From Acidobacteriota bacterium (lineage in GTDB: Bacteria; Acidobacteriota; Vicinamibacteria; Vicinamibacterales; UBA8438): 64,000 bases of DNA. Both the position numbers and the translations under genes were made by a program. Location: the NCBI GenBank assembly GCA_015659035.1, contig DQNS01000041.1:10-64009 (forward strand). Direction: 5' to 3'. Below the pieces are notes generated by a model. The model was not told the origin of the DNA. It ran no database searches and worked only from the letters and a program-made list of their open reading frames with translations. Of the stretch, positions 4,854 to 62,597 are shown one piece after another (position 1 is the first letter of the stretch; each line of letters starts with the position of its first letter).

Positions 4854-4928
4854 CACGATGCCTAGCAGCCCTCGTCGCGCCTTGTCAGCTGGGCGCATCG
4901 CCTGTCTCGGCGCGACCCGGGACTTTCA

Positions 4929-5507
4929 CTACGAACTGCTAGGTCTGGAACCCGGCTTGGACACAGGCTCGCCACGGGCGCACATCGGGCATACGCCCGA
5001 CTCATAGGCGGGCAGCGGGATCTGCGCCAACGCATCGAATGGCACATCGAACCGGACCGGCTCTTCGCCACGGTCGATGATCGCCCCGGCACCAACGACT
5101 GTGCCGCCCGCCGCCACGGCCACGTCGATCGTCTCGCGGGTCGAGCCGCCGGTCGTGACGACGTCCTCCACGACCAGCACCCGTTCGCCAGGGGCGATCC
5201 AGAATCCACGACGCAACGTCAGCCGGCCGTCCCGACGCTCGGCGAACAGGGCCCGGACACCCAGGGCCCGCGCCACCTCGTGCCCGATGACGACCCCGCC
5301 CAGCGCCGGCGACAGCACAACCCCCGGCTCGAGACCGGCCGCCTGCGCGGCCAGCGCCTGCCCGAGCGCCGCCGCATGTGCGGGGTGCTGCAGCACCCGA
5401 GCGCACTGGAGATACCCGGCGCTGTGGAGCCCGGAGGACAGCTGGAAATGCCCCTCCAGGAGCCCTGCACATCGCCGGAACAGGTCGAGCACGGCGGTCG
5501 AGTCCAT
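4929..5507 (-). CDS. pyrE: orotate phosphoribosyltransferase
   Basis: VLVVEDVVTTGGS PRPP-binding motif. Start taken at ATG 5507 (MDSTAVLDLF). Confidence 0.85.
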   Translation of the reverse strand: MDSTAVLDLFRRCAGLLEGHFQLSSGLHSAGYLQCARVLQHPAHAAALGQALAAQAAGLEPGVVLSPALGGVVIGHEVARALGVRALFAERRDGRLTLRRGFWIAPGERVLVVEDVVTTGGSTRETIDVAVAAGGTVVGAGAIIDRGEEPVRFDVPFDALAQIPLPAYESGVCPMCARGEPVSKPGSRPSSS

Positions 5508-13442: not shown

Positions 13443-13571
13443 CACGACAGGCACGATAACTCCCTGGGGATCGCTGGCAGCCAGCACGTCGCCGCGGAAT
13501 AGACACCGCAACGAGACGGACTCCAGCAGGGTGAGATGGGGAGGACGCGTCGGGAACGGAACACTGTCACA

Positions 13572-13595
13572 CCTCTTTGCGGCCTCTCCGGGCCA
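13572..13595 (-). promoter_or_regulatory. candidate PyrR-binding hairpin in the pyrR leader
   Basis: Minus-strand RNA reads UGGCCCGGAGAGGCCGCAAAGAGG. The GGCC/GGCC stem presents CGGAGA, loosely like the UCCAGAGAGGCU PyrR loop recalled from Bacillus. Confidence 0.25.
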
Positions 13596-13627
13596 GCATT
13601 AAAGAGACTGATCAATATTAGCGTCCG

Positions 13628-13781
13628 GTCCCAGAGGTTCGCAACATAATTCCGCGCGGGGCATCCCGCCTGGACTGCGTTGCTCCTCTCACAAATCCCC
13701 AATTTGCTCCCTCGTCGCGCCTTGCAATGGCCGGGCGCGGCATGAGCACGACGCGGGACTCATGCCGCGAACCTCTGGGAC
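13628..13781 (-). ncRNA. candidate structured RNA element, SE family copy D
   Basis: Perfect 15-bp closing helix GTCCCAGAGGTTCGC/GCGAACCTCTGGGAC. Core reads GCAAGGCGCGACGAGGGAG..GAGAGGAGCAACG..CCAGGCGGGATGC. Sense with pyrR. Confidence 0.5.
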
Positions 13782-13860
13782 AGAACGCCAGTGCTCGGCC
13801 CGGTCGCTTGCCAAGCCATCGACAATATGCGCCAAGGGCGTTCAGGTATACTCGCCCGGT

Positions 13861-14679
13861 ATGCCGCTCGACGTCGACGCCGTCGTCGTGTCCAATACCC
13901 ACCTGTCAAACGACTACAACGTGCTGGTGCTGGCTGCCCCCGCCGTCGCGTCTCAGGTGCAACCGGGACAGTTCGTGATGGTCAAGCCCGGCGTCGGCGA
14001 CGACCCGCTGCTCCGCCGACCGTTCTCGGTGTTCGAGGTGCTGCGGGACGACGCGCGGGTCACTGGGCTCTCGCTGTTGAACAAGCGGGTCGGGGTCACC
14101 ACGCGAATGCTGTTCGCGCTGACACCGGGTGACCGGATCCGGTGTCTCGGTCCGCTCGGGCGACCGTTCTCGGTGACGGAACCGCCGGAACGGGCATGGA
14201 TGGTCGCCGGTGGGGTTGGGCTGGCGCCGTTCGCCACGCTCGCCGCGGCCCTCCGGGAGCGAAATGTGAAGACCACCCTGTTCTACGGTGGTCGGAGCGC
14301 GACCGACCTGTTTCATCTCGACGAGTTCCGTCAACGTGGTGTCAGCCTCACGCTGGCCACCGACGATGGGAGCCGGGGCGTGCAGGGGAACGTCACCGTC
14401 CCGCTCGCACGAGCCTTCTGTGACGCAGACCGGGCGACACCGATCCGGGTCTATGCCTGCGGACCGACGGCGATGATGCGCGCCGTGACGGAACTGGCGG
14501 CGACCCACGGACGCGCGATCGAGGTGTCGCTGGAGCAGGTGATGGGCTGCGGTCTCGGCGGGTGCTACAGCTGTGTCATACCGGTACAGCGCGACAGCGG
14601 TCCTGCCCGCCTCGTGCGTTCGTGTCTCGACGGACCGGTCTTCGACGGCGGCACCGTGGTCTGGGAGCAGCTAGGATGA
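13861..14679 (+). CDS. pyrK: dihydroorotate dehydrogenase electron-transfer subunit
   Basis: FAD/NAD-binding ferredoxin-reductase-like sequence with C-terminal CGLGGCYSC..C 2Fe-2S cysteines. ATGA overlap with pyrD. Confidence 0.85.
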   Translation: MPLDVDAVVVSNTHLSNDYNVLVLAAPAVASQVQPGQFVMVKPGVGDDPLLRRPFSVFEVLRDDARVTGLSLLNKRVGVTTRMLFALTPGDRIRCLGPLGRPFSVTEPPERAWMVAGGVGLAPFATLAAALRERNVKTTLFYGGRSATDLFHLDEFRQRGVSLTLATDDGSRGVQGNVTVPLARAFCDADRATPIRVYACGPTAMMRAVTELAATHGRAIEVSLEQVMGCGLGGCYSCVIPVQRDSGPARLVRSCLDGPVFDGGTVVWEQLG

Positions 14680-15620
14680 GCGTCGACCTGTCGGTTGACA
14701 TCGCCGGGTTGCACCTGCGCAATCCGTTCATTGCCGCGAGCGGCTGTTTCGGTTACGGCGTGGAATACGCCGATCTGGTGGACCTGTCGACTCTTGGCGG
14801 GGTCGCGGTCAAGGGGCTGTTTCTCGATGCGCGGGAAGGCCATCCACCGACACGAATCGTGGAAACGCCGAGCGGGATGCTGAACGCCATCGGGTTGCAG
14901 GGCATCGGTGTCCGGCGGTTCGTGGCCGAAAAGCTACCATTGCTCCGCGCGCACGGCGCCGTCGTGATCGTCAACATCTGCGGCTCGACGATCGACGAGT
15001 ATGCCGAGGTCGCGCGGATCCTGGACGACGCCGATGGGGTCGGCGCGCTGGAGGTGAACATCTCCTGCCCGAACATCAAGAAGGGCGGGATGATGTTCGG
15101 CTGCTCGCTGCAGGGCACGCGCGACGTCGTCGCCGCGGTACGCCGGGTCACCCGGCGTCCGGTCATCCCGAAGCTCACGCCGAACGTGACCGACGTCGCG
15201 TCGTTCGCCGCCGCGGCACGTGACGCGGGGGCGGACGCCGTCTCGCTCGTCAACACGTTCTTGGCGATGGCGATCGACGTCGAGACGCGCCGCCCCAAGC
15301 TCTCGAACGTGGTGGGCGGACTGAGCGGCCCGGCGATCCGGCCGATCGCGGTCCGGATGGTCCATGAGTGCCGGCAGGCGGTGGACCTGCCCATCATCGG
15401 CATGGGCGGCATCATGACCACCGGGGATGCACTGGAGTTCATCATCGCCGGCGCCACCGCCGTGCAGGTGGGCACGGCCAACTTCGTGGACCCGTTCATC
15501 TGGAACAAGCTGGTGACAGGCCTCACCGACTACTTGCAACGCCACGGGCTCGCGACGGTGTCCGACCTCGTCGGCACCCTCGACATCACGGACAGGGATA
15601 CGGTGTGGACCAGCTCCTAG
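14676..15620 (+). CDS. pyrD: dihydroorotate dehydrogenase (class 1B) catalytic subunit
   Basis: [16 protein letters not shown]-terminus and [19 protein letters not shown] motifs. Confidence 0.9.
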
Positions 15621-15906
15621 TGGCGCTCGATGTCGACACCCGAGAGCGGGCGCTCGAGCTGGCCGACCTGCTGCGTGGCACCGCCGGGGGGGCAAGATCG
15701 GGAGCCGGCTCTTCACGAGCGAAGGACCGTCGCTCATCTCAACGCTCACGCACCGCGGGGACCGGGTCTTCCTTGATCTCAAGTATCACGACATTCCGAC
15801 GGTCGCGGCCGAGGCGGTGCGCGCCGCCGCCCGTCTCGGGACCTGGATGCTCACGGTCCATTCATCGTGTCCCCGGACCCGCTCGCGTCCGCCAAGGCCA
15901 TCGTGA
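15605..15906 (+). pseudogene. pyrF: orotidine 5'-phosphate decarboxylase remnant (frameshifted and truncated)
   Basis: [23 protein letters not shown] in one frame, then [43 protein letters not shown] in another frame after a G7 run (15686-15692). Stops about 95 codons in, and the middle and C-terminal domain are missing. Confidence 0.6.
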
Positions 15907-15930
15907 GACAGCTAGAAGAGCAGCGCGCCC

Positions 15931-15960
15931 GGAGCCTGAAGCCTGAACCCTGCAGCCTGA
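15931..15960. repeat. R1-related short repeat (GCCTGAA variant)
   Basis: GGAGCCTGAAGCCTGAACCCTGCAGCCTGAA. Resembles the variant at 24920-24950. Confidence 0.4.
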
Positions 15961-15994
15961 AATGGTTCACCAGCCTGCTGAGGGCCCTCAACCC

Positions 15995-16240
15995 ATGCAT
16001 CTGACCCTCTACACCCGCCCGGGGTGCCATCTGTGCGACGACCTGAAGGAGACCCTGTTGCGAGTCCGCCGCCGGCAGGCGTTCGAGCTGAGGGAGGTCG
16101 ACATCTCGGGCGACCCGGCGCTCGAGCGGCGGTATGGACACGACATCCCGGTGCTGCTGCTCGACGGTGTCGAGACCGCGCGACACCGGATCGACGAGGC
16201 CGACCTCATACGCAGGTTGACTCGGGCACAGGCGGGATGA
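15995..16240 (+). CDS. glutaredoxin-like small thiol-disulfide protein
   Basis: MHLTLYTRPGCHLCDD CxxC motif in a thioredoxin-fold-sized ORF of about 81 aa. Confidence 0.7.
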   Translation: MHLTLYTRPGCHLCDDLKETLLRVRRRQAFELREVDISGDPALERRYGHDIPVLLLDGVETARHRIDEADLIRRLTRAQAG

Positions 16241-16242
16241 GT

Positions 16243-16398
16243 GGTCCGTCGCATACTTATAGCGACGCACCGAGGTCGTCGAGGCGCCCGGCCCGCAAGG
16301 CGCGAGTCGGGAGAAGACAGGGAGTATTTGACCGACGAGCAACGCAGCGGGACGGGATGCATCGGCGGCCGAATGCAGCCGTAATTATCCCACGGGCC
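16243..16398 (+). ncRNA. candidate structured RNA element, SE family copy C
   Basis: Starts 3 nt after the glutaredoxin-like stop. Core reads GCAAGGCGCGAGTCGGGAG..GACCGACGAGCAACG..GGGATGCATCGGCGGCC. Terminal arms pair at about 17 of 21 positions. Confidence 0.45.
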
Positions 16399-16406
16399 GC
16401 TAAGTC

Positions 16407-16434
16407 GTGTGTGCGGGGCGCTCCCCGCACACAC
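16407..16434. terminator. perfect 12-bp GC-rich hairpin between convergent genes
   Basis: GTGTGTGCGGGG-CGCT-CCCCGCACACAC. No U-tract, so function as an intrinsic terminator is inferred from position only. Confidence 0.45.
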
Positions 16435-16465
16435 GCTCAGAACGGTTCCGGTCGGGCGACCGGTC

Positions 16466-17044
16466 TTACTTGCCCGTGACGACGAAGTGCCCGCGCCGGT
16501 TGCGCGACCAGCACCCCTCGTGTGAATCGGTGCAGAAGGGCGACTCCTCGCCCCGGCTCACCGTCGCGATCCGGTTCGCCGCGATTCCAAGACTCACCAG
16601 ATAGTCCCTGACGGCAGTCGCGCGGCGCTCGCCGAGCGCGAGGTTGTACTCGTTGGTGCCGCGTTCGTCACAGTGGCCCTGCACGGTCACCCGCGTGGAG
16701 TCCCACTGGCCCATCCAGTCGGCGTTGCGCCGCAGCGCAGCCTGCCCGTCGGACAGCAACTCCGACATGTCGAGATCGAAGAACACCGGGTCGAGCGGCG
16801 AAGTGCTGTTGAGCTCCTCCAGCGACATCCGCGCGAACAACTCCTCGGGAGTCAGCGGCGCTGGCGGCGGCGGCGGCGGCGGTGGCGGCGGCGGTGGCGG
16901 CGGCGGTGGCGGTGGCGGTGGCGATGGTGCCGGCGGCGGCGGTGGCGGTGGCTCAGGCGGCGGGTTATCTGCGCAGCCCAGCGCACCAAGGCCGAGCACC
17001 AGGCTCAGGCACACGGCGAGCAGATAGCGATATGCGGACTTCAT
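16466..17044 (-). CDS. pal: OmpA-family peptidoglycan-associated lipoprotein with long polyproline linker
   Basis: Lipobox LGALGC, a Pro-rich linker of about 45 residues, and an OmpA_C-like domain (GHCDERGTNEYNLALGERRA). Confidence 0.8.
   Translation of the reverse strand: MKSAYRYLLAVCLSLVLGLGALGCADNPPPEPPPPPPPAPSPPPPPPPPPPPPPPPPPPPPAPLTPEELFARMSLEELNSTSPLDPVFFDLDMSELLSDGQAALRRNADWMGQWDSTRVTVQGHCDERGTNEYNLALGERRATAVRDYLVSLGIAANRIATVSRGEESPFCTDSHEGCWSRNRRGHFVVTGK
16863..16964. repeat. (GGY)n trinucleotide tract encoding the Pal polyproline linker
   Basis: About 100 nt of nearly uninterrupted GGCGGCGGT repeats on the plus strand (CCN codons on the minus strand). Confidence 0.9.
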
Positions 17045-17254
17045 TAGCAGCGTCTCCTGTTTCCGCGCTCCGATAAGGTCTTGTACGCCTTCTGGTTCAG
17101 ATACCGTATTCGAACGGAGCGCCCATATAGCCAGAAGTGCAAAGCTTACAGAGGAACGGTGAAATCTGTCAATTCACAGTATTTTCAACTACTTCCGACA
17201 CCCCGATCTCGGTGTCGACGCCAGGTGCGGCAGCACGGTCCGTTCTTGACCAGG

Positions 17255-17464
17255 TCAGTCGCCATCGCCGTCGCGGTCCTCGTCCTCGTCCGCCGGCTCA
17301 TCGAGGTCACCCGCGGCCTCCTCATCGGCCAGCTCGAGCGTGAGCGGCGACAACCCGAACACCACCAGATTGGCACCGCACTCGGAGCAACTCAGCTGGT
17401 CGCCACGGTCCACATCGAACTCGTCGACATCGATGTCGGCCCCGCACTCGCTGCAGATCGCCAT
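17255..17464 (-). CDS. small LysW-like zinc-ribbon protein with acidic tail
   Basis: MAICSECGADIDVDEFDVDRGDQLSCSECGANLVVFGLSPLTLEL has two CxxC pairs, followed by the acidic tail DEPADEDEDRDGDGD. Confidence 0.6.
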   Translation of the reverse strand: MAICSECGADIDVDEFDVDRGDQLSCSECGANLVVFGLSPLTLELADEEAAGDLDEPADEDEDRDGDGD

Positions 17465-17809
17465 CCCCTGTTCGCGGCTCCAACGGGACCGAGCGCAGAG
17501 CACACCAACACCCGAGACCGGCTCTCCACATCGCCGGATAGCGGGGTGCGGGCGCAGAAGTATAGCGGGAACCCGTAGCGGACCGCAACGCATAACGACG
17601 CTCGGCGAGGCACACGGGTTCGCACTTCCTGGTGAAAGGCGCGCGTCGCACCGACACTCGCCGCAATTGATGCCGCCCTCGGCCAGTACACCCCGCCGCG
17701 CAGAAAGATTTGTCCACGAATGTCTGACTCCGGACACACGCAACGCCGATAACATGACAAGCGCTAGCCCGATGTCCCGCCACGGCGGGATCGGTGGAGA
17801 ATCTTCCCG

Positions 17810-18526
17810 ATGATCGCCGCAGCCGTAGGCTCCCGAACCGTGCTGATCGCCTCCGCGGCGACCGGCGTCCGGGACCGGTTCGCCGAGGCGCTGCTGCAGG
17901 CCGGTCACCGAACGCTCACAGCAGCGCGGACATCCGACCTGCTCGGCTCGGTCGACACCGCCCGGCCCGGCGTGGACCTGCTGTTGCTCGATCTCGGCCT
18001 GGGGGGTGGCGACGGCGTGTCACTGATCCGGCACATACGTGACCACGCCGGCAGTCTGCCGATCATCGTCTTCAGTGGATCGGTCATCGGCGCCGACGAG
18101 GTGCGCGGGCTGGCGGCGCTCGGGGTCACCGGCTACGTGAACGAGCACGTCGACGCCCAGCAGATCCTGTCATCGCTGGCACCGCACTTGTTTCCCGACA
18201 GCTTCAACCGGCGCAGCAGTGCTCGGGTCGTGCTCGCGATCCCCGTGTCCTACCGGTTCGACAACACCATCGGCGGCGCACTGACGTTGAACATCAGCAA
18301 GGGCGGGCTGGCCATCCGCACGATGAGCCCGCTGGCGATCTCTACCGCGGTGCGCGCGCACTTCCAGCTCCCCGGCGCGGACCGCGAGATCAGCGCCGGT
18401 TCGCGGGTGGTGTGGAGCGACCGACGGGTGGGCATGGGACTGCAGTTCGAACAAGTGGATGCCGGCGACCAGACCGCGGTCGACGAATATGTCGACCGGC
18501 ATGATCAGGCTGGGCCGGACGCGTGA
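17810..18526 (+). CDS. response-regulator receiver domain fused to a PilZ domain
   Basis: REC-like N-terminus (DLLLLDLGLGGGDG..VTGYV). C-terminal RRSSAR..(N24)..LNISKGGLAI matches the PilZ RxxxR / (D/N)xSxxG pattern. Confidence 0.75.
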   Translation: MIAAAVGSRTVLIASAATGVRDRFAEALLQAGHRTLTAARTSDLLGSVDTARPGVDLLLLDLGLGGGDGVSLIRHIRDHAGSLPIIVFSGSVIGADEVRGLAALGVTGYVNEHVDAQQILSSLAPHLFPDSFNRRSSARVVLAIPVSYRFDNTIGGALTLNISKGGLAIRTMSPLAISTAVRAHFQLPGADREISAGSRVVWSDRRVGMGLQFEQVDAGDQTAVDEYVDRHDQAGPDA

Positions 18527-18589
18527 GCGTCTTGACACGCTTTCGGCCGTGCCGTTAGGTTCTATGGGGAGTGTTGCGGCCCTCACTCC

Positions 18590-18775
18590 AGCCGTCCGTA
18601 GTGAAAGTCCAGCGCGGCACCGCGACCCGTCGTGGTCGTGATCGATGCCGCGCCCGCCCAGCAAGGCGCGAGGAGCGCGCATTCCGGGAAGCGGGAAGTA
18701 TGTGCGCGACGGGCAACGAAGCCGGGCGGGATGCATCGGCGGCCAGCGTGGCATAGTTATTCCCGCCCGGGTGCC
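18590..18775 (+). ncRNA. candidate structured RNA element, SE family copy A (3' part divergent)
   Basis: GTGAAAGTCCAGCGCGGCACC..GCAAGGCGCGAGGAGCGCGCAT..ATGTGCGCGACGGGCAACG..CCGGGCGGGATGCATCGGCGGCC. Lies about 100 nt upstream of the ABC operon start. Confidence 0.4.
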
Positions 18776-18874
18776 AAAACAGTATCCAGAACCGGTCGTG
18801 CCCCACCGAACGCTCTGGGCGCCGGCGGGAACCTGCACGACGCCAGCGCGTCAGCTCTCGGGAGGAACCGTATC

Positions 18875-19888
18875 GTGATCGACGTGCAGCACGTGACCAA
18901 GCGCTATGGGCCGCTGACAGCGGTGGATGACCTCAGCTTCCGTGTCGAGCGAGGAGAGATCCTGGGATTCCTGGGTCCGAACGGCGCGGGCAAGACGACG
19001 ACCATGCGGATTCTGACGGGGTATCTGCCGGCGACCGAGGGCCGGGTACAGGTTGCCGGGTTCGACGTGTTCGAACAGCCGATCGAGGCCAAACGCCGAA
19101 CGGGATACCTCCCGGAGACACCGCCGCTCTATCCTGAGATGACGGTTGACGAGTATCTGCAGTTTGTCGCACGGATCAAGGGCGTGCCGGCGAGTGACCG
19201 TCAGGCCCAGATCGGCTCCGCCATGGAGCGCACCAGCATCGCGGACATGGGCGACCGCTACTGCGGCAGGCTGTCGAAAGGGTACCGACAGCGTGTCGGT
19301 CTGGCCCAGGCGATCCTGCACAACCCCGACGTGCTGATCCTCGACGAACCAACGGCGGGGCTGGACCCGAGACAGATCATCGAAACACGCAAACTGATCA
19401 CCGATCTGGCGGGCGACCACACGGTCATCCTCAGCACGCACATCCTGCCGGAGGTTTCGCAGACCTGCCAGCGCGTCGTCATCATCAACCGGGGCCGGGT
19501 GGTCGCGGTCGACACCCCGGACAACCTGACGGCGCGGCTGCAGGGGTCGCAGACCCTGTATCTGCAGGTCGACACGCAGGGCGCCGACCCGCTCCCGGCG
19601 CTCGAAGGCGTCGCCGGCGTCCTCAGCGTCACCGTCGCCGACAAGCGGGACGGCGTCGGCGGCTATCAGGTCGAAAGTGGCAGCGGTGACGACATCCGGC
19701 GCGAGCTGTCCCGGACCGTGGTCACGAACGGGTGGGGGCTGCTGGAGCTGCGGCCGCAGCAAATGAGCCTCGAGGACATCTTCCTGCAGCTGACGACCGA
19801 GGATGCGCCAGCCGACACCCTGGCGGCAGATGCCGGGACCGGGGACGACGCGGACGAGGCGAACACGGAGGACCGCACCGATGGGTAA
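18875..19888 (+). CDS. ABC transporter ATP-binding protein (ABC-2 / GldA-like)
   Basis: Walker A GPNGAGKTTT, signature LSKGYRQR, Walker B LILDEPT. GTG start 8 nt after GGAGGA. Confidence 0.9.
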   Translation: MIDVQHVTKRYGPLTAVDDLSFRVERGEILGFLGPNGAGKTTTMRILTGYLPATEGRVQVAGFDVFEQPIEAKRRTGYLPETPPLYPEMTVDEYLQFVARIKGVPASDRQAQIGSAMERTSIADMGDRYCGRLSKGYRQRVGLAQAILHNPDVLILDEPTAGLDPRQIIETRKLITDLAGDHTVILSTHILPEVSQTCQRVVIINRGRVVAVDTPDNLTARLQGSQTLYLQVDTQGADPLPALEGVAGVLSVTVADKRDGVGGYQVESGSGDDIRRELSRTVVTNGWGLLELRPQQMSLEDIFLQLTTEDAPADTLAADAGTGDDADEANTEDRTDG

Positions 19889-29399: not shown

Positions 29400-29663
29400 C
29401 TATCCCGTCGGGTCGACGATGCCGACAATCGCCGCGTCCACCGGGGCCGCGCGCCGGCCGAGGGCGGCACCCGCGGCGCGTCCCTCGAGCACGAGCAACA
29501 CCAGCTCGCCGACACCGGCGCCGACCGAATCGACGGCCAGCTGGACCCCGCCCACCGGCTGACCGTCCCGGTCCACCGGCTGGGTCAACAGCAGCTTCGC
29601 ACCGACGAGCGTGCGGTGCTTCCGCGTCGCCACGACGGAGCCAATGACCCGAGCCAGACGCAT
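29400..29663 (-). CDS. BMC vertex protein (BMC-P, EutN/CcmL family), paralog 1
   Basis: MRLARVIGSVVATRKH..LLLTQPVD..AVDSVGAGVGELVLL..PVDAAIVGIVD is the canonical EutN/CcmL pattern. Confidence 0.85.
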   Translation of the reverse strand: MRLARVIGSVVATRKHRTLVGAKLLLTQPVDRDGQPVGGVQLAVDSVGAGVGELVLLVLEGRAAGAALGRRAAPVDAAIVGIVDPTG

Positions 29664-29740
29664 GGTGCAGTCCTAGACAGCTCCTACGGGATGAGATAGT
29701 AACGTCTGAAGCAAGTTTTCATGACACGCGGAGATGTCTA

Positions 29741-29829
29741 GGCCCCGCGTAGCGGGGCTGTGAGAAAAGCTTCTGCTAGCGAGGCTGCGCGTCACTTTTC
29801 TCGTCGATTTGAGGCGCAGCTTCGCTAGC
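29741..29829 (-). repeat. R2 family repeat unit
   Basis: Reverse complement reads CTAGCGAAGCTGCGCCTCAAATCGAC..CTCGCTAGCAGAAGC..AGCCCCGCTACGCGGGGCC. Lies between BMC-P1 and BMC-P2. Confidence 0.8.
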
Positions 29830-30145
29830 GTCTCGGGGCCCGACGTCTTGGGGACCGTCGCGGCGGGCCGGCGGGGACGTCGTCAGTCGTCCAGTGGTCG
29901 CAGATCCCGGTAACGGCGGCGTCGGTCGGCACCACAGCCGGGAGAAACGGAAAGGACGCCGCCCGCCCGCGGACGAAGAACACCTCTTCCCCGGCGCCGG
30001 CGCCGACGGCGTCGACTGCCACGAGCGGCCTGCCCACGGCCTCACGGGCGGGTGAGAGCGGTTGCACCACGAGCAACGTGAGCCCGACCAGACCCGGGTC
30101 CTTGATGGTCGAGACGACGTTGCCGATCACCCGCGCAAGCTGCAT
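29825..30145 (-). CDS. BMC vertex protein (BMC-P), paralog 2, with basic C-terminal tail
   Basis: MQLARVIGNVVSTIKDPGLVGLTLLVVQPL..AVDAVGAGAGEEVFF. The tail PPRRSPRRRAPRR partly overlaps the R2 copy. Confidence 0.8.
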   Translation of the reverse strand: MQLARVIGNVVSTIKDPGLVGLTLLVVQPLSPAREAVGRPLVAVDAVGAGAGEEVFFVRGRAASFPFLPAVVPTDAAVTGICDHWTTDDVPAGPPRRSPRRRAPRR

Positions 30146-30197
30146 CGATCGAAAGCCCTGGAGTGCGTGGGATTCGGGTTTCCACGCTGCGATCTCT

Positions 30198-30482
30198 TCA
30201 GGTCGAGTCGTCGGTCTCGACGATATCGACGATATCGACGATGCCGACGATCGCGGCGTCGACCGGGCGGTCGGCCAGACCGGCCGCCATCCGCGCGGAG
30301 CTCCCGCTGACGATCAGCACGGTCTCGGCGGCGCCGGCGTCCACGGTGTCGACCGCTACCAGCTGGGCGCCGCGCGGCTCGCCATCGGGCGAGACGGGCT
30401 GTACGAGCAGCAGCGTGCTGCCGACCAGACGCTCGTCCTTACGCGTCGCGACGACGGTACCCACCACCTTGGCGAGGATCAT
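30198..30482 (-). CDS. BMC vertex protein (BMC-P), paralog 3, with acidic repeat tail
   Basis: MILAKVVGTVVATRKDERLVGSTLLLVQPV..AVDTVDAGAAETVLI..PVDAAIVGIVDIVDIVETDDST. Confidence 0.85.
   Translation of the reverse strand: MILAKVVGTVVATRKDERLVGSTLLLVQPVSPDGEPRGAQLVAVDTVDAGAAETVLIVSGSSARMAAGLADRPVDAAIVGIVDIVDIVETDDST
30217..30252. repeat. 4 x 9-nt tandem repeat (NTCGACGAT) in the BMC-P3 3' end
   Basis: CTCGACGAT ATCGACGAT ATCGACGAT GCCGACGAT encodes the reiterated IVD motif. Confidence 0.85.
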
Positions 30483-30492
30483 GTCGTGTCTG

Positions 30493-30582
30493 CTAGCGAA
30501 GCTGCGCCTCAAACCGACAAGTGAACGCGGTGCGCCCCCTCGCTAGCAGAAGCATTTTGCAGAGCCCCGCTACGCGGGGGCT
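30493..30582 (+). repeat. R2 family repeat unit
   Basis: CTAGCGAAGCTGCGCCTCAAACCGAC..CTCGCTAGCAGAAGC..AGCCCCGCTACGCGGGGGCT between the BMC-H stop and the BMC-P3 start. Confidence 0.8.
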
Positions 30583-30608
30583 CGCGCGGGTCCGCCCGGC
30601 GGACACGG

Positions 30609-30896
30609 TCACTGGCCGGTGCTCTTGCCGATCGGCAGGACGTCCTCGAGGTTGCTGTGGGGCCGCGGGATCACGTGGACCGACACGAGCTCGCCGACCC
30701 GACGAGCCGCGGCGGCGCCGGCGTCGGTGGCCGCCTTCACCGCCGCCACGTCGCCTCGGACGAGCGCGGTCACGAACCCTGCGCCGATCTTCTCCCAACC
30801 GACCAACGTGACATTGGCGGCCTTGACCATGGCATCCGACGCTTCGATCATCGCCACCAGTCCCTTGGTCTCCACCATTCCGAGCGCCTCGCCCAT
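30609..30896 (-). CDS. BMC hexamer shell protein (BMC-H, PduA/EutM-like)
   Basis: [54 protein letters not shown] lies 7 nt upstream of ATG 30896. Confidence 0.9.
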
Positions 30897-30909
30897 GAGA
30901 TGCCTCCCG

Positions 30910-31794
30910 CTACCGTAGCTGCTTGACGGCATCTGCGATCAGCGCCGTCAGCTCGCGGTATGTTAATCGAATTCCGTCGTCCGGATCTAACAGTCCGAGG
31001 TGACAGTCCCGCGTCGCGGCACCACCGGACCCGACCGTCTGCGCCTCGACCAGCCGCGCCCCTGGCTGCGACGGCGCCTCGAGCACCTGACAGCTAACGT
31101 CCTCTCCCTCCTTGCCCTCCTCCCGAGCCGGCGGGCAGAGCGGCGCCGGTGCCGCGATGCCATAGCGGTCCCGGAGGCCCTGCAACCGGTTCACTTCTTC
31201 CCGTGACAACAGCCGCTCGCCGCCGAGCTGTCTGGCCACCAGGCTGATCCGCGCGAAGTGCTCCACCGTCTCCATCTTGTAATAGGCGCCGAACAGATCG
31301 TGCGCCACGGTCAGGGCGCCGTGGTTGGCCAGCAACAATCCGTCGTGCGCGCGGATGTAGTGCCGCACGGCATCGGCCAGCTCGCTGGTGGATGGGGTGC
31401 CGTAGTCAGCGATCGGTATGCTTCCGAGGGTCGTGACGACCTCGGCCAGGACCGCCCGGTCGAGCGGGATCCCGGCAACCGAGAACCCGGTGGCGGTCGG
31501 CGGGTGCGCGTGCACGACCGCCTCGATCTCCGGCCGGTGCTCGTAGACCGCCAGATGCATGAGGATTTCAGACGACGGCTCCCGTTCCCCGGTCAGCTTG
31601 CGCCCACTGAAGTCGGTGGTGACCATCATGTCCGGCGTCATGAACCCCTTGGAGACGCCGGCCGGGGTCGTCAACAGCCGCTCGGCATCAAGCCGCACGC
31701 TGATGTTGCCGTCATTCGACGCAACGAAGCCGCGGTCGTGCAATCGCCGCCCGATCTCGACGATGTCGGCGCGGAGCCGTTCCTCGATCTGCAT
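30910..31794 (-). CDS. class II aldolase/adducin-family protein with C-terminal extension
   Basis: [14 protein letters not shown] and [11 protein letters not shown] zinc-ligand region. About 75 extra C-terminal residues end in an amphipathic helix. Confidence 0.85.
30913..30972 (-). other. putative encapsulation peptide of the aldolase
   Basis: Terminal [20 protein letters not shown] is an amphipathic helix preceded by a Pro/Gly/Ser/Glu-rich linker. This is the typical architecture of BMC cargo targeting peptides. Confidence 0.55.
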
Positions 31795-31806
31795 CTCGTG
31801 TCTCGA

Positions 31807-32027
31807 GTCCGAAGTTCGCGAACATTTTCCGGGCGGGGCATCCCGCCTGGCGGCGCCAGCCGCCGCCCGGCCCGTTCATGGCCGGGCTATGGCCAGGTCT
31901 CGCCGAAGCCGTGGCGACGGCGGATTGCTCCTCGGTCGAATGCTGCCGGTATGCTCCCTCGTCGCGCCTGCACTGGCCGGACGCAGCATGAGTACGACGC
32001 CGGAAAATCTGTCCGCGAACCTCTGAC
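31807..32027 (-). ncRNA. candidate structured RNA element, SE family copy E (with about 70-nt insertion)
   Basis: Closing helix GTCAGAGGTTCGCG/CGCGAACTTCGGAC pairs at 13 of 14 positions. Core reads GCAGGCGCGACGAGGGAG..GACCGAGGAGCAAT..[GC-rich insert]..CCAGGCGGGATGC. Ends 13 nt before the aldolase ATG. Confidence 0.5.
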
Positions 32028-32035
32028 CCGAAACA

Positions 32036-32323
32036 CTAGTCTCGGGCTCGGGCTCGCGATTCCTGCTGGAACGCCGTGCGGCAGTACTCGGAGCAGAAGT
32101 AGTGCATCCCCCCCTTCCGGCGGAGCGTCAGGGCCCGCGCCTGGTCGACGTAAGTCCCGCACACCGGGTCCCGCACCAACGGTACCCCTTTCGCGGGAGG
32201 TATCTGAGGCCGGCGCGCGGCACCCTCGACGACACCGCCGATAAACTTCCAGACCAGCCGCACCAGCAGCATCACGACGAGAAACCGGATGAGCCAGCCA
32301 AACACCATTTGAGTCGGCGACAC
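32036..32323 (-). CDS. small membrane protein with YHS/TRASH-like metal-binding domain
   Basis: N-terminal TM segment, then VRDPVCGTYVD..YFCSEYC pattern. Confidence 0.65.
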   Translation of the reverse strand: MSPTQMVFGWLIRFLVVMLLVRLVWKFIGGVVEGAARRPQIPPAKGVPLVRDPVCGTYVDQARALTLRRKGGMHYFCSEYCRTAFQQESRARARD

Positions 32324-32339: not shown

Positions 32340-32384
32340 CTAGTGGCCTGTCTGGGCCACTTGTGGCCTGTATAGGGCCACTAG
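32340..32384. repeat. double palindrome GTGGCC-N6/7-GGCCAC
   Basis: CTAGTGGCCTGTCTGGGCCACTTGTGGCCTGTATAGGGCCACTAG. A related half copy TGTGGCCCGTATAGGGC lies at 35182-35198. Confidence 0.7.
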
Positions 32385-41292: not shown

Positions 41293-41369
41293 TGGTGCCG
41301 GTGCAGGGACTTGAACCCCGGACAACGCGGATATGAGCCGCGTGCTCTAACCAACTGAGCTACACCGGC
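41293..41369 (-). tRNA. tRNA with CAU anticodon (elongator Met or lysidine-dependent Ile2)
   Basis: Reverse complement GCCGGTG-TA-GCTC-AGTTGGTTA-GAGC-A-CGCGG-CTCATAT-CCGCG-TTGTC-CGGGG-TTCAAGT-CCCTG-CACCGGC-A-CCA folds as a full cloverleaf. G1:C72 argues against an initiator tRNA. Confidence 0.9.
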
Positions 41370-60859: not shown

Positions 60860-62314
60860 CTACGGCGTGGCGTACAGGTCGATGACACGCTCGATCGCCC
60901 GGCTGCACACGCGGCAGAACCCAACCGGGTTACGCGTGAACATGATGCAATCGACCTCGGGTCGATACAGGCCGGTCGATTCATAGGAGGCCCCCTCGAA
61001 CGCCCCGACCGTGCCGGCATGCTCCATCCCACCGAGCAACGCGGTTTCGCGCTCCATCTGCTCGGTGAACAGCTCGTCCATCGCCGTCTCGGGGGCGCCG
61101 TCGGCCCGCAGCCCGCGGCGCTTCTGTTGGGCCGCGACGCTCCCGGCCTCGAACAGATCTTTGTCCCACGGCGTCGGCACCGGGACATCCACCCCGATCA
61201 GATCGCCCCACTTCACGCCAGCGGGGTCGTGCAGCGCGGTGACGTTCGGCTCCCACGGCTCCGGGTGATACGCCGCGCCGGTCTCGTAGGCCACGTCCGA
61301 CGTGTAGTACTCGTCGGCCAGCCCGGCGAAGTGATGACCGAACTCGTGGATGAACACGTACTCGGCGAACCCGGTGTCGGCCGCCGCCGTCGCCTGGAAA
61401 TTGAAGATCCCGCCACCGCCGTACTGCGCCTCGTTGACGAGAATCTCGAGAAACTCGTACGGGGCCGCCGACGCCGCGTCCCGGAGGGCTCGGTTGTCGT
61501 AGGTCAGGACGTAGCGCTCCGAATCGAAGATGTTGTACTCGGCCGACAACGGCGTCCGACGGAACTGCCCGGCGCGTGGCCGGCTGACACCGGACTCGGC
61601 CGACGGCAGGTCGAGCCCCCACACGTTGAAGTCACCCTTCCGGCTCCGGAACGGCTCCTCGTCGAACAACGCGTTCACGAGCCGGGTCGCATCGGCATGG
61701 AACTTGGGAATCTCTGCCACGGTGTAGCCCTCGCCGATCACCAGCAGGTCGACCTTCTCGGACGGCGAGCCGTTCTCGAACAGCGGCCAGACCTCGCCCA
61801 TCGGCTCCCGGTCGGTCGAGTTGACAAACCGCGAGTCCGGGTCGATCACGACAGACCAAATCTCGTGGAAGCTGTTCTCGGTATCGCGGGCCTTCAACAC
61901 CACCTGGACCGGCGCCTTCGGCCAGGGGAACCGCAGCGACTCACGAAAGCTCCGGTAGACCTCCCGGGACTCGGCGGTGGTCTCCCACTCGCCGTAGATC
62001 GACGCGAACCCACGCGAGTACAGGACCCGGTTCGTTCGCCGGTCGAGCACTTCGAACAGATACTTCCCCAGGTTCAGACCGTCGACCAGCCGCGTGCGGC
62101 TACCGGCCCACGGCCCGTCCGAGACCACCTGGTCCAACCCGATGATCTCCTGACCCAGCCCGCCCGAGTGGACGTAGTCGACCCGCATCGTCTTGCCCCG
62201 GAAGAAGGTGTCGAAGTCGGGCGGCGCCTGACCGGCGGTCTGGCCACCAAGCGCGAGTGTGACGGCCAGGGCGGCGGGGAGGCCGGCGGTGAACCGATGT
62301 CGAGAGCGAGTCAT
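60860..62314 (-). CDS. M64-family (IgA-peptidase-like) secreted metallopeptidase
   Basis: Signal peptide, then FIHEFGHHFAGLADEY HExxH..E motif. Confidence 0.8.
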   Translation of the reverse strand: MTRSRHRFTAGLPAALAVTLALGGQTAGQAPPDFDTFFRGKTMRVDYVHSGGLGQEIIGLDQVVSDGPWAGSRTRLVDGLNLGKYLFEVLDRRTNRVLYSRGFASIYGEWETTAESREVYRSFRESLRFPWPKAPVQVVLKARDTENSFHEIWSVVIDPDSRFVNSTDREPMGEVWPLFENGSPSEKVDLLVIGEGYTVAEIPKFHADATRLVNALFDEEPFRSRKGDFNVWGLDLPSAESGVSRPRAGQFRRTPLSAEYNIFDSERYVLTYDNRALRDAASAAPYEFLEILVNEAQYGGGGIFNFQATAAADTGFAEYVFIHEFGHHFAGLADEYYTSDVAYETGAAYHPEPWEPNVTALHDPAGVKWGDLIGVDVPVPTPWDKDLFEAGSVAAQQKRRGLRADGAPETAMDELFTEQMERETALLGGMEHAGTVGAFEGASYESTGLYRPEVDCIMFTRNPVGFCRVCSRAIERVIDLYATP

Positions 62315-62330
62315 GGCGATATTCTAGCAG

Positions 62331-62482
62331 CCCGTGGTGGAAGTCCAGCGTTGCACCGAGACCGGTGATGTGCCCGGTTGGCAAGGCGCGACGAGGGAGA
62401 ATACCGGCAGTATGTGACCGAGGAGCAACGACGCCAGGCGGGATACAGCGCCGGTCGAATGCAGCTGGGCTTTCACCACGGG
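62331..62482 (+). ncRNA. candidate structured RNA element, SE family copy B (best-formed copy)
   Basis: 19-bp closing helix CCCGTGGTGGAAGTCCAGC/GCTGGGCTTTCACCACGGG with 2 G-U pairs. GTTGC..GCAAC inner helix. Core reads GGCAAGGCGCGACGAGGGAG-ATAC/GTAT hairpin-GACCGAGGAGCAACG-CCAGGCGGGATAC. Confidence 0.55.
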
Positions 62483-62597
62483 TTGCCCGTGTCCCGTCAC
62501 AGGAGCATGCGAAATGATTCCCGGACCTTCCCCGTCTGTACGGACACGGTGTGTTGAACCACCGACCATCCTTCTGCCTTGATTGACCGACACGTGG

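Follow-up and report, generated by a model that had tools for sequence, protein, structure and literature searches.

In the 64-kb stretch of Acidobacteriota DNA analyzed here (64,000 nucleotides of contig DQNS01000041.1, from a Vicinamibacterales bacterium; hereafter, the window), the repeat at positions 62327-62486 belongs to a family with five complete copies there, a sixth with an internal deletion and several minute remnants, a density of 6-7 copies per 64 kb. The five repeats are probably copies of a single non-coding miniature inverted-repeat transposable element (MITE) of about 160 bp, with target duplications like those of IS630 or IS5 elements, and the family is not a gene-regulating RNA. 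CTAG or C-TNA-G serves as the insertion site, and TA or TNA becomes duplicated. The spread across phyla, the conserved non-canonical core, the fixed length and the strand-specific folding are unusual for a MITE.

An initial annotation, made from the sequence alone, had described a five-copy family and proposed it as a candidate structured RNA. The existence of the family and the places of its copies were borne out: a pattern based on the conserved core matched four of the five, against 0.00 expected from 100 dinucleotide-preserving shuffles, and an nhmmer search with a profile from many family members recovered all five (E values from 2e-37 to 5e-11), plus a sixth, internally deleted one. The remaining full copy (copy E) was missed by the core pattern because about 75 nt are inserted in it between GAGCAA and CCAGGCGGGAT. 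Each element reaches a few bases further out than had been annotated, up to the flanking TA. The full copies are the following:

62327-62486, forward strand: copy B, the repeat under study, 160 nt, full length (nhmmer E = 2e-37)
16241-16400, forward strand: copy A, 160 nt, full length, left end GTGGTCCG (nhmmer E = 5e-35)
18589 (approximate) to 18775, forward strand: copy C, chimeric (nhmmer E = 2e-24)
13621-13788, reverse strand: copy D, left end GCGTTCTGTCCC, with an GTGTCCCG-type arm (nhmmer E = 1e-19)
31798-32036, reverse strand: copy E, a long variant of 239 nt (nhmmer E = 5e-11)

The elements share a common order, GCAAGGCGCGA-S-GAG-S-G-M-G and a short variable hairpin, followed by GA-S-G-R-GCAA and then G-R-CGGGATGC. 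No coding capacity is conserved, as loop indels and differing arms break any reading frame in the alignment of copies; a conserved small open reading frame (ORF) starting from the invariant GGGATGC was considered and rejected, its frame differing between subtypes. In copy B the left end is GCAGCCCGTGG, with CTA at the left, and the right-hand TA has decayed to CC. The terminal stem of this copy has the 19 bp previously assigned to it, with two G·U pairs inside, so that it is not entirely Watson-Crick. The hairpin GCGCGCAT/ATGTGCGC, which had been assigned to the copy labeled A in that annotation, is actually found in the copy at 18.6 kb.

The evidence for transposition comes from the sequences flanking the elements. 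Insertion sites were CTAG or C-TNA-G, with TA or TNA duplicated, and were very often stop codons, in genomes of 67% G+C. Copies of the GGGCCC-ended subtype are flanked by directly repeated trinucleotides, the two being identical in 22 of 35 cases: TAA…TAA was found in 15 and TTA…TTA in five, with a single mixed case (15:1:0:5; Fisher p = 3e-4), and TTT…TTT and TGA…TGA occurred once each. In subtypes with G…C ends, 42 of 73 copies were flanked by TA…TA, usually within CTAG, three by TTA…TTA and one by CTG…CTG. Different copies in the metagenome-assembled genome (MAG) LejiaC_64_15 had TAA/TAA and TTA/TTA flanks (loci L023 and L049), and in locus L085 (153-471) a gene stop codon TGA is followed by element-TGA-element-TGA, that is, by two direct tandem elements with one shared TGA, which shows that one duplicated target was used repeatedly. 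Duplications of 4 bp (CTAG) or 5 bp (CTWAG) were also considered and rejected, the outer bases varying independently (c, g or t at the left; g, a or c at the right).

Comparison with contigs carrying orthologues of the window's aldolase gene (86-90% identity) revealed empty and filled versions of the same sites. The junction between the YHS-domain and aldolase genes is filled in the window (GAC-TAG-[239-nt element]-GAG-ATG) and empty in L126 (CAC-TAG-ATG), L124 (GGC-TAG-ATC-TAG-ATG) and L128 (CC-TGATG). Conversely, at the junction between the bacterial microcompartment (BMC) and EutN genes the window is empty (TTCG-CTAG-CAGACACGAC) and L128 is filled (GCCG-CTG-[160-nt element]-TAG-CAGACACGAC). 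The stop codon of the TPR gene holds full elements of different subtypes in L124, L126 and L128, has micro-hairpins in the window and is empty in L130; several independent insertions have occurred at this position. The view that the repeats do not fit a transposon is contradicted by these target-site duplications and by the empty and filled CTAG sites in relatives.

The structure of the element was analyzed on 111 aligned copies. The RNAalifold consensus is one continuous rod-like hairpin with 46 predicted pairs, 36 of which show compensatory double changes. Standard pairs occupied 93.6% of the cells, against 33-40% when the 3' partners were slid by 1-3 columns, and the covariation score was 0.524, against 0.06-0.08 in the slid controls; none of 500 shuffles reached the observed values. 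The conserved core with covarying helices reported for the five window copies was thus upheld. Helix 1 has 19 pairs, with 91.6% of the cells paired. Its outermost 8-10 bp form the terminal inverted repeats (consensus GNRGYCCYG), and in the outermost 10 bp the covariation could come from a transposase binding both ends instead of from folding.

Element length is fixed as well, at 160±1 nt, with a median of 160 nt and a 5-95% range of 158-162 nt in every subfamily. The 5' arm measures 55-57 nt and the 3' arm 42-43 nt in every arm subtype, yet arm sequences are almost wholly different between subtypes. Extra material, where present, takes the form of side branches and does not lengthen the helix: copy D and L065 carry a small hairpin in the 5' arm, and copy E and three related loci a structured domain of about 75 nt. 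The arms can change freely provided that pairing is kept, while the apical 60 nt are conserved across phyla. The arms drift towards the base composition of the host and the core does not, as seen in L029, a contig labeled Desulfococcus in which AT-rich flanks and AT-rich element arms surround an intact GC-rich core; this points to genuine residence in a different genome.

The apical core is rich in G and A, and consists of covarying Watson-Crick pairs alternating with tandem sheared-type G·A/A·G pairs, with the consensus AAGGCGCGA-S-GA-GS-GA-G … Y-GA-S'C-GA-S'-GAGCAACG. From the outside inwards, the order is 136-185, 137-184, G138·A183, A139·G182 and S140-S'181; then come G141·A180, A142·G179, G143-C177, S144-S'176, G145·A175 and M146·R174, and G147-Y173 closes the variable hairpin. 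Pair counts were taken from the metagenome set (53 copies), which is less biased than the set collected with the core pattern:

Core pair 140-181: CG 23, GC 20, AU 7, UA 1
Core pair 143-177: GC 28, CG 14
Core pair 144-176: CG 24, GC 17, UA 3
Core pair 147-173: GU 33, GC 15, AU 3

The two tandem GA/GA steps were retained in 43 and 37 of these 53 copies, respectively. In L096 and L225 a tandem G·A step is swapped for two Watson-Crick pairs and, although such copies are few, this substitution confirms that the bases concerned lie opposite one another. Both core arms resemble direct repeats of CGA-S-GAG; since S and S' are complementary and not identical, the constraint is on pairing, and not on tandem protein sites in duplex DNA.

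Folding is specific to one strand. Predicted pairs included 328 G·U against 63 A·C, and the ratio was still 3-4:1 after the copies were collapsed into 23-87 sequence clusters. With RNA parameters, folding favored the AGGCGCGA strand over its complement in 108 of 110 copies, and with DNA parameters in 109 of 110; the mean RNA folding energy was -101.9 kcal/mol, against -87.6 for the complement. For copy B, the minimum free energy as RNA was -99.1 kcal/mol (z = -9.4) on this strand and -73.7 on the other. The specificity has a simple cause: on the complementary strand each tandem G·A becomes a tandem C·U (C·T), and such pairs do not stack. As the strand bias is inherited by whole subfamilies, it appears to have been selected in the copies that propagate.

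No Rfam 15 family accounts for this structure, the models of RNase P, glycine, PyrR and cobalamin included. At gathering thresholds, the search of the window against Rfam 15 returned no match to the elements, and the lone match was a tRNA gene at 41296-41369 on the reverse strand (68.8 bits). At E<=10, nothing overlapped the elements at 13500-18900 or 62300-62560, and the four regions searched in all yielded nothing relevant, so that the status of the copies as unclassified in Rfam was confirmed and the echoes of RNase P RNA and of the glycine riboswitch perceived earlier found no support. The copy in L059 matched, on both strands, only generic GC-rich plant miRNA hairpin models (e.g. MIR1437; 41.6 bits, with a gathering score of 168).

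The surroundings of the elements were examined in 92 copies with callable neighbors, genes being called by a crude rule based on G+C content at third codon positions (GC3). Orientation was near random: 31 copies were co-directional with their neighbors, 22 were anti-directional, 24 lay between convergent genes and 15 between divergent ones. In about half of the copies an element end was located within a few bases of the stop codon of a flanking gene (30 at the 5' end of the element and 21 at its 3' end). All-against-all clustering of the ORFs from 115 loci yielded no recurrent neighbor protein family, the largest cluster being present in 11 of the 115. Judged by sequence, the representatives of the top ten clusters look like unrelated ordinary proteins, with types such as TonB-type receptors, ABC or FtsX transporter components, sigma-54 regulators and PQQ dehydrogenases, and no transposase was seen among them. 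The sense-oriented regulatory RNA located 5' of operons, as first proposed, does not agree with this near-random orientation and lack of a recurrent neighbor. An unclassified cis-regulatory or stand-alone structured RNA controlling downstream operons would account for the strong covariation, for the conserved core with its RNA-like non-canonical pairs, for the branch-type insertion domain of a subset of copies and for the absence of a matching Rfam family. It is nevertheless highly improbable, given the orientation, the unrelated neighbor genes, the adjacency of about half of the copies to a gene 3' end at the stop codon, the target-site duplications with empty and filled site pairs, and the presence of several copies per 10 kb in some loci. 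The initial annotation had itself named randomly oriented copies and target-site duplications as evidence against an RNA, and both were found.

The family extends well beyond the window. The core pattern retrieved at least 115 loci from GTDB species-representative genomes, and a half-core pattern (3' half) retrieved at least 64 true members, as judged by nhmmer, among the 94 complete metagenome windows listed. Only 18 of these 64 fit the strict core pattern, so that the family is far more varied than the first pattern indicated, and the 5' half AAGGCGCGA was conserved in the metagenome set even where the search did not demand it. In total, 253 nhmmer matches were obtained in the 1.6 Mb of genome and metagenome DNA examined; both collection scans used patterns derived from the core, and the abundances are lower bounds. 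Some loci held several copies per 10 kb. Among the matches listed, the main carriers were MAGs of Vicinamibacterales (soil and marine bacteria) and other Acidobacteriota, and other labels included Gammaproteobacteria (among them the closed 3.1-Mb chromosome OX639965.1), Acidimicrobiia, Gaiellales, Myxococcales, Desulfococcus and Thermodesulfobacteriota. No match was found in 72,556 plasmids (blastn, with two subtypes) or in IMG/VR viral contigs (pattern scan), and no description of the family was found in Rfam, in these plasmid and viral collections or in the literature searched.

With regard to the mode of mobilization, elements of the IS630/Tc1-mariner group duplicate TA, CTAG being the target of IS630 itself, while IS5-family groups (IS1031, ISL2, IS427) and the eukaryotic PIF/Harbinger elements related to them duplicate TNA/TWA or 2-4 bp. 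MITEPsy1, an IS5-derived element of Pseudomonas syringae, duplicates CTAG or YTAA (PMC3189936), and in IS1031-group elements three nucleotides are recognized as insertion site (PMC2516522). The target signature found here is that of the DDE transposases of the IS630/Tc1-mariner and IS5/PIF-Harbinger groups, which makes mobilization in trans most likely. A DDE transposase of IS630 or IS5 type, the identity of the enzyme being a guess, would thus move the elements in trans, and the terminal consensus could be its binding site. In order to spread, the element may have to fold while single-stranded, whether as DNA exposed during replication or transposition or as a transcript, a step to which we assign roughly even chances within this explanation. 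The folded GA-rich core might then act as a recognition or stability module for the mobilizing machinery or for a host factor. The unconstrained genomic orientation, together with a strand bias inherited by subfamilies, points to selection on the propagation of the element itself. As a side effect, an element located in a transcribed 3' untranslated region (UTR) would form a very stable RNA hairpin in either orientation; element ends also supply stop codons.

Several observations weigh against a MITE moved in this way. No transposase or autonomous element with matching termini was found beside any of the 253 copies (1.6 Mb plus the window); L002 and L072, with inverted terminal 14-mers 0.6-2.6 kb apart, were evaluated as candidate autonomous elements and proved on reading to consist of ordinary genes or solo arms. 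By itself, a double-strand cut-and-paste DDE mechanism leaves unexplained the strand-specific foldability, the fixed length of 160 nt and a center conserved above the ends, and one genome carries at least four arm types. For the types with G…C ends, the palindromic TA duplication is indistinguishable from an extension of the stem, and in L027 and L011 the flanks have changed in a compensatory way. Moreover, part of the invariance of the core is due to ascertainment by the search patterns, and the taxonomy of the carriers was taken from the titles of MAG records, so that single cases may be binning errors.

In a further reading, which we regard as doubtful, the GA-rich apical helix would be the true recognition module of the element, with a trans-acting enzyme binding the folded single strand; the additional proposal that the enzyme acts at the base of the rod, at a fixed distance of 160 nt (about 50 pairs), is to be taken with the same reserve. 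If this were true, only pairing, length and the last arm bases would matter, and the family would be a structure-read mobile element similar to attC or REP, yet leaving TA/TNA duplications, across at least five phyla. Put otherwise, it would be a mobile RNA/DNA aptamer-like module riding on interchangeable termini.

A different enzyme is conceivable. Repetitive extragenic palindromic (REP) sequences and REPINs are structure-defined, strand-specific palindromes served in trans by REP-associated (RAYT) or terminal inverted repeat (TIR)-associated (TIRYT) tyrosine transposases, and their termini can give TAG stops, features in which they resemble the element (PMC3733652). The element would then be REPIN-like and moved as single-stranded DNA by an HUH tyrosine transposase (IS200/IS605-like) reading the folded hairpin, which would agree with the strand-specific foldability and tolerance of G·U pairs, with the conservation of structure under variable sequence, and with the lack of a transposase beside any copy, as is also the case for REPs, which depend on a single-copy RAYT. 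In addition, TAG stop codons are likewise contributed by REPs of the GTAG kind, and the TIR-associated tyrosine transposases found in Acidobacteria form a group apart, with repeat families of its own (PMC3733652). We consider this alternative unlikely. HUH enzymes make no duplication, whereas the direct 3-bp repeats of the element vary within one MAG (L023, L049) and are TGA/TGA in L085. Orientation with respect to local GC skew showed no significant bias (63:49, p = 0.26), in a comparison of only moderate power in which 8-kb skew is a weak proxy for the replication strand. The element is also four to eight times as long as a REP (160 nt vs. 20-40 nt), has flanking direct duplications and YTA/TAR ends, and is devoid of the GTAG or CGTC head. 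Finally, no Y1 transposase gene flanked by copies was found in the loci examined, and the inverted copy pairs in L018 and L075 enclose no ORF with HUH/Y1 hallmarks, as judged by eye.

Host roles have been proposed for hairpins of this kind in REP, ERIC and Correia elements, and the MITE could likewise have been co-opted, its transcribed hairpin working as a 3'-UTR stabilizer, as a barrier to RNases or as a dock for RNA-binding proteins. The frequent placement right after stop codons, the very stable hairpin on either strand, the resemblance of the GA-rich helix to a protein-binding module and the fixation of copy E, nearly invariant in the 8 contigs listed (of 23), speak for such a role. On the other hand, copies at gene 3' ends were sense in 30 cases and antisense in 21, although the well-folding strand would be expected to be the transcribed one; the retention of one core in phyla whose RNA machinery differs favors selection acting on the element itself, and many copies are decayed, chimeric or deleted. 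Co-option by the host is improbable as the explanation, but possible as a side effect.

Understood as a MITE, the element is most similar to those derived from IS5 or IS630, such as MITEPsy1 (PMC3189936), which are also small, non-coding and multi-copy, with short terminal inverted repeats, CTAG/YTAA-like sites, 2-4 bp duplicated and presence/absence polymorphism between relatives. It differs from them in that no parent insertion sequence was found in the window and about 250 loci, in that the termini differ by subfamily within a genome while the center is conserved across phyla, and in that the entire element forms a single hairpin, strand-specific and fixed in length. Palindromic MITE-like repeats making RNA hairpins are well known (ERIC, Correia, REP), and ERIC/IRU, Correia (CREE/NEMIS), RUP, BOX and SMAG are, like this element, high-copy imperfect palindromes of 100-170 bp. 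Correia and ERIC also duplicate TA, and the repeats of this group are co-transcribed with neighboring genes into RNA hairpins and have variants with insertions at fixed internal sites, as here. They are confined to a genus or family, whereas the present family reaches several phyla by MAG labels, and they have no sequence similarity to it; to our knowledge, a GA-rich helical core and extensive arm covariation have not been described for them.

The eukaryotic Tourist and Stowaway MITEs (PIF-Harbinger, TWA; Tc1-mariner, TA) show the same two duplications and the same fold-back hairpin shape, but the element is bacterial, has a conserved non-canonical core and is not homologous to them. In integron attC sites, as is proposed for this element, a folded single strand is recognized; in both, sequence is free, structure is kept and folding is strand-specific. 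Unlike attC, the element has no RYYYAAC/GTTRRRY core sites, cassette arrays or integrase nearby; its termini are TAG…CTA or TAA…TAA, and it is located on both strands, between housekeeping genes and with target duplications. TwoAYGGAY and other multi-copy RNA motifs with mobile-element-like behavior are comparable in being structured, with copy numbers that vary extremely, repeats at their flanks and an unsettled link between mobility and function (bioRxiv 10.64898/2026.09.22.753630). The element differs from these in having neither AYGGAY loops nor an Rfam match.

Vicinamibacterales are among the commoner soil bacteria, and knowledge of the family avoids false calls of riboswitches, small RNAs or small ORFs. 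The family accounts for many long intergenic hairpins and stop-codon contexts, and its insertion polymorphism represents a marker for strain tracking. It also offers a natural case of a transposon in which the center, and not the ends, is conserved together with a strand-specific fold, so that what a MITE needs beyond terminal repeats becomes directly testable.

The count of five given initially was incomplete, as the window also contains the following derivatives:

4865-4939, reverse strand: internally deleted copy (nhmmer E = 2e-9, profile positions 2-74)
62489-62547, forward strand: 59-nt remnant that lacks the core and ends in GTGTCC…GGACAC, matched by a terminal-repeat seed
32343-32380, reverse strand: two tandem micro-hairpins of 17-18 nt (TGGCCCTATACAGGCCAC and TGGCCCAGACAGGCCAC), consisting of element termini alone

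In the first of these, the right terminus (CTGC) follows immediately on the left arm and the initial part of the core (…AAGGCGCGACGAGGG), with CTAG on either side. The 59-nt remnant directly adjoins copy B. The micro-hairpins, bounded by TAG/AAG/TAG, follow the stop codon of the TPR gene, and similar hairpins of 17-18 nt formed by termini only were found between TAG repeats in L128 (~943-965) and L124 (~1190-1210), where relatives have full elements; they are probably excision footprints or extreme deletion derivatives.

The window carries four arm types, and copies with arms of different subtypes were observed in copy C, in L085 (313-471) and in L130 (1254-1497). Copy C combines a CAGCC..GTGAAAGTCC left arm with a right arm belonging to the ..GTTATTCCC..GGG type, and its apical loop is enlarged. 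The terminal stem of such chimeric copies is poor because their left and right arms come from different subtypes, and they likely arose by recombination between the conserved cores of neighboring copies.

The TAG that terminates the YHS-domain gene is the precise insertion point of copy E and forms its left boundary, and the element touches the ATG of the class II aldolase gene. Among contigs encoding an identical aldolase, it was present in all 8 listed (of 23; 8 samples), with one variable base. The closest named homologues of this aldolase bear Vicinamibacterales or Acidobacteria labels, and identical proteins lie on contigs whose names (PicMicro, Vondamm, MCRcombined) suggest hydrothermal samples from the Mid-Cayman Rise, in keeping with a marine relative of the Vicinamibacterales as the source of the window. 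Its additional domain (…UCCGCCNUCGCCAAGGCUUCGGCGAGACCUGGCCAUAGCCCGG…GGGCCGGGCGGCGGCUGGCG…) occupies one fixed point, between GAGCAA and CCAGGCGGGAU, and looks like a side branch with a possible UUCG-capped hairpin. The long variant was also detected in L128 (~965-1205), L130 (1254-1497) and L124 (943-1190), and the domain was seen in the window's own clade only.

The stretch at 29400-31794 (reverse strand) and loci L116-L130 carry a conserved bacterial microcompartment locus, syntenic across Vicinamibacterales relatives, which encodes the YHS-domain protein, the class II aldolase, a BMC-H shell protein, three EutN/CcmL pentamer proteins and a 2-hydroxyacid dehydrogenase. MITE insertions in this locus differ among relatives in almost all of its intergenic gaps.

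Copy A is closely followed downstream, in the space between convergent genes, by a hairpin that is GC-rich and perfect (GTGTGTGCGGGGCGCTCCCCGCACACAC, 16408-16435), probably an ordinary terminator that is not related to the element. Copy D, which bears the additional small hairpin branch in its 5' arm, is situated upstream of the pyrR leader. Between this copy and the start of pyrR (13511), a weak match to the PyrR binding site with an GGCCCGGAGAGGCC loop was observed at 13552-13609 on the reverse strand (22.8 bits, gathering score 54, E = 7.7). It is probably the actual pyrR attenuator, which would place copy D upstream of the true leader.

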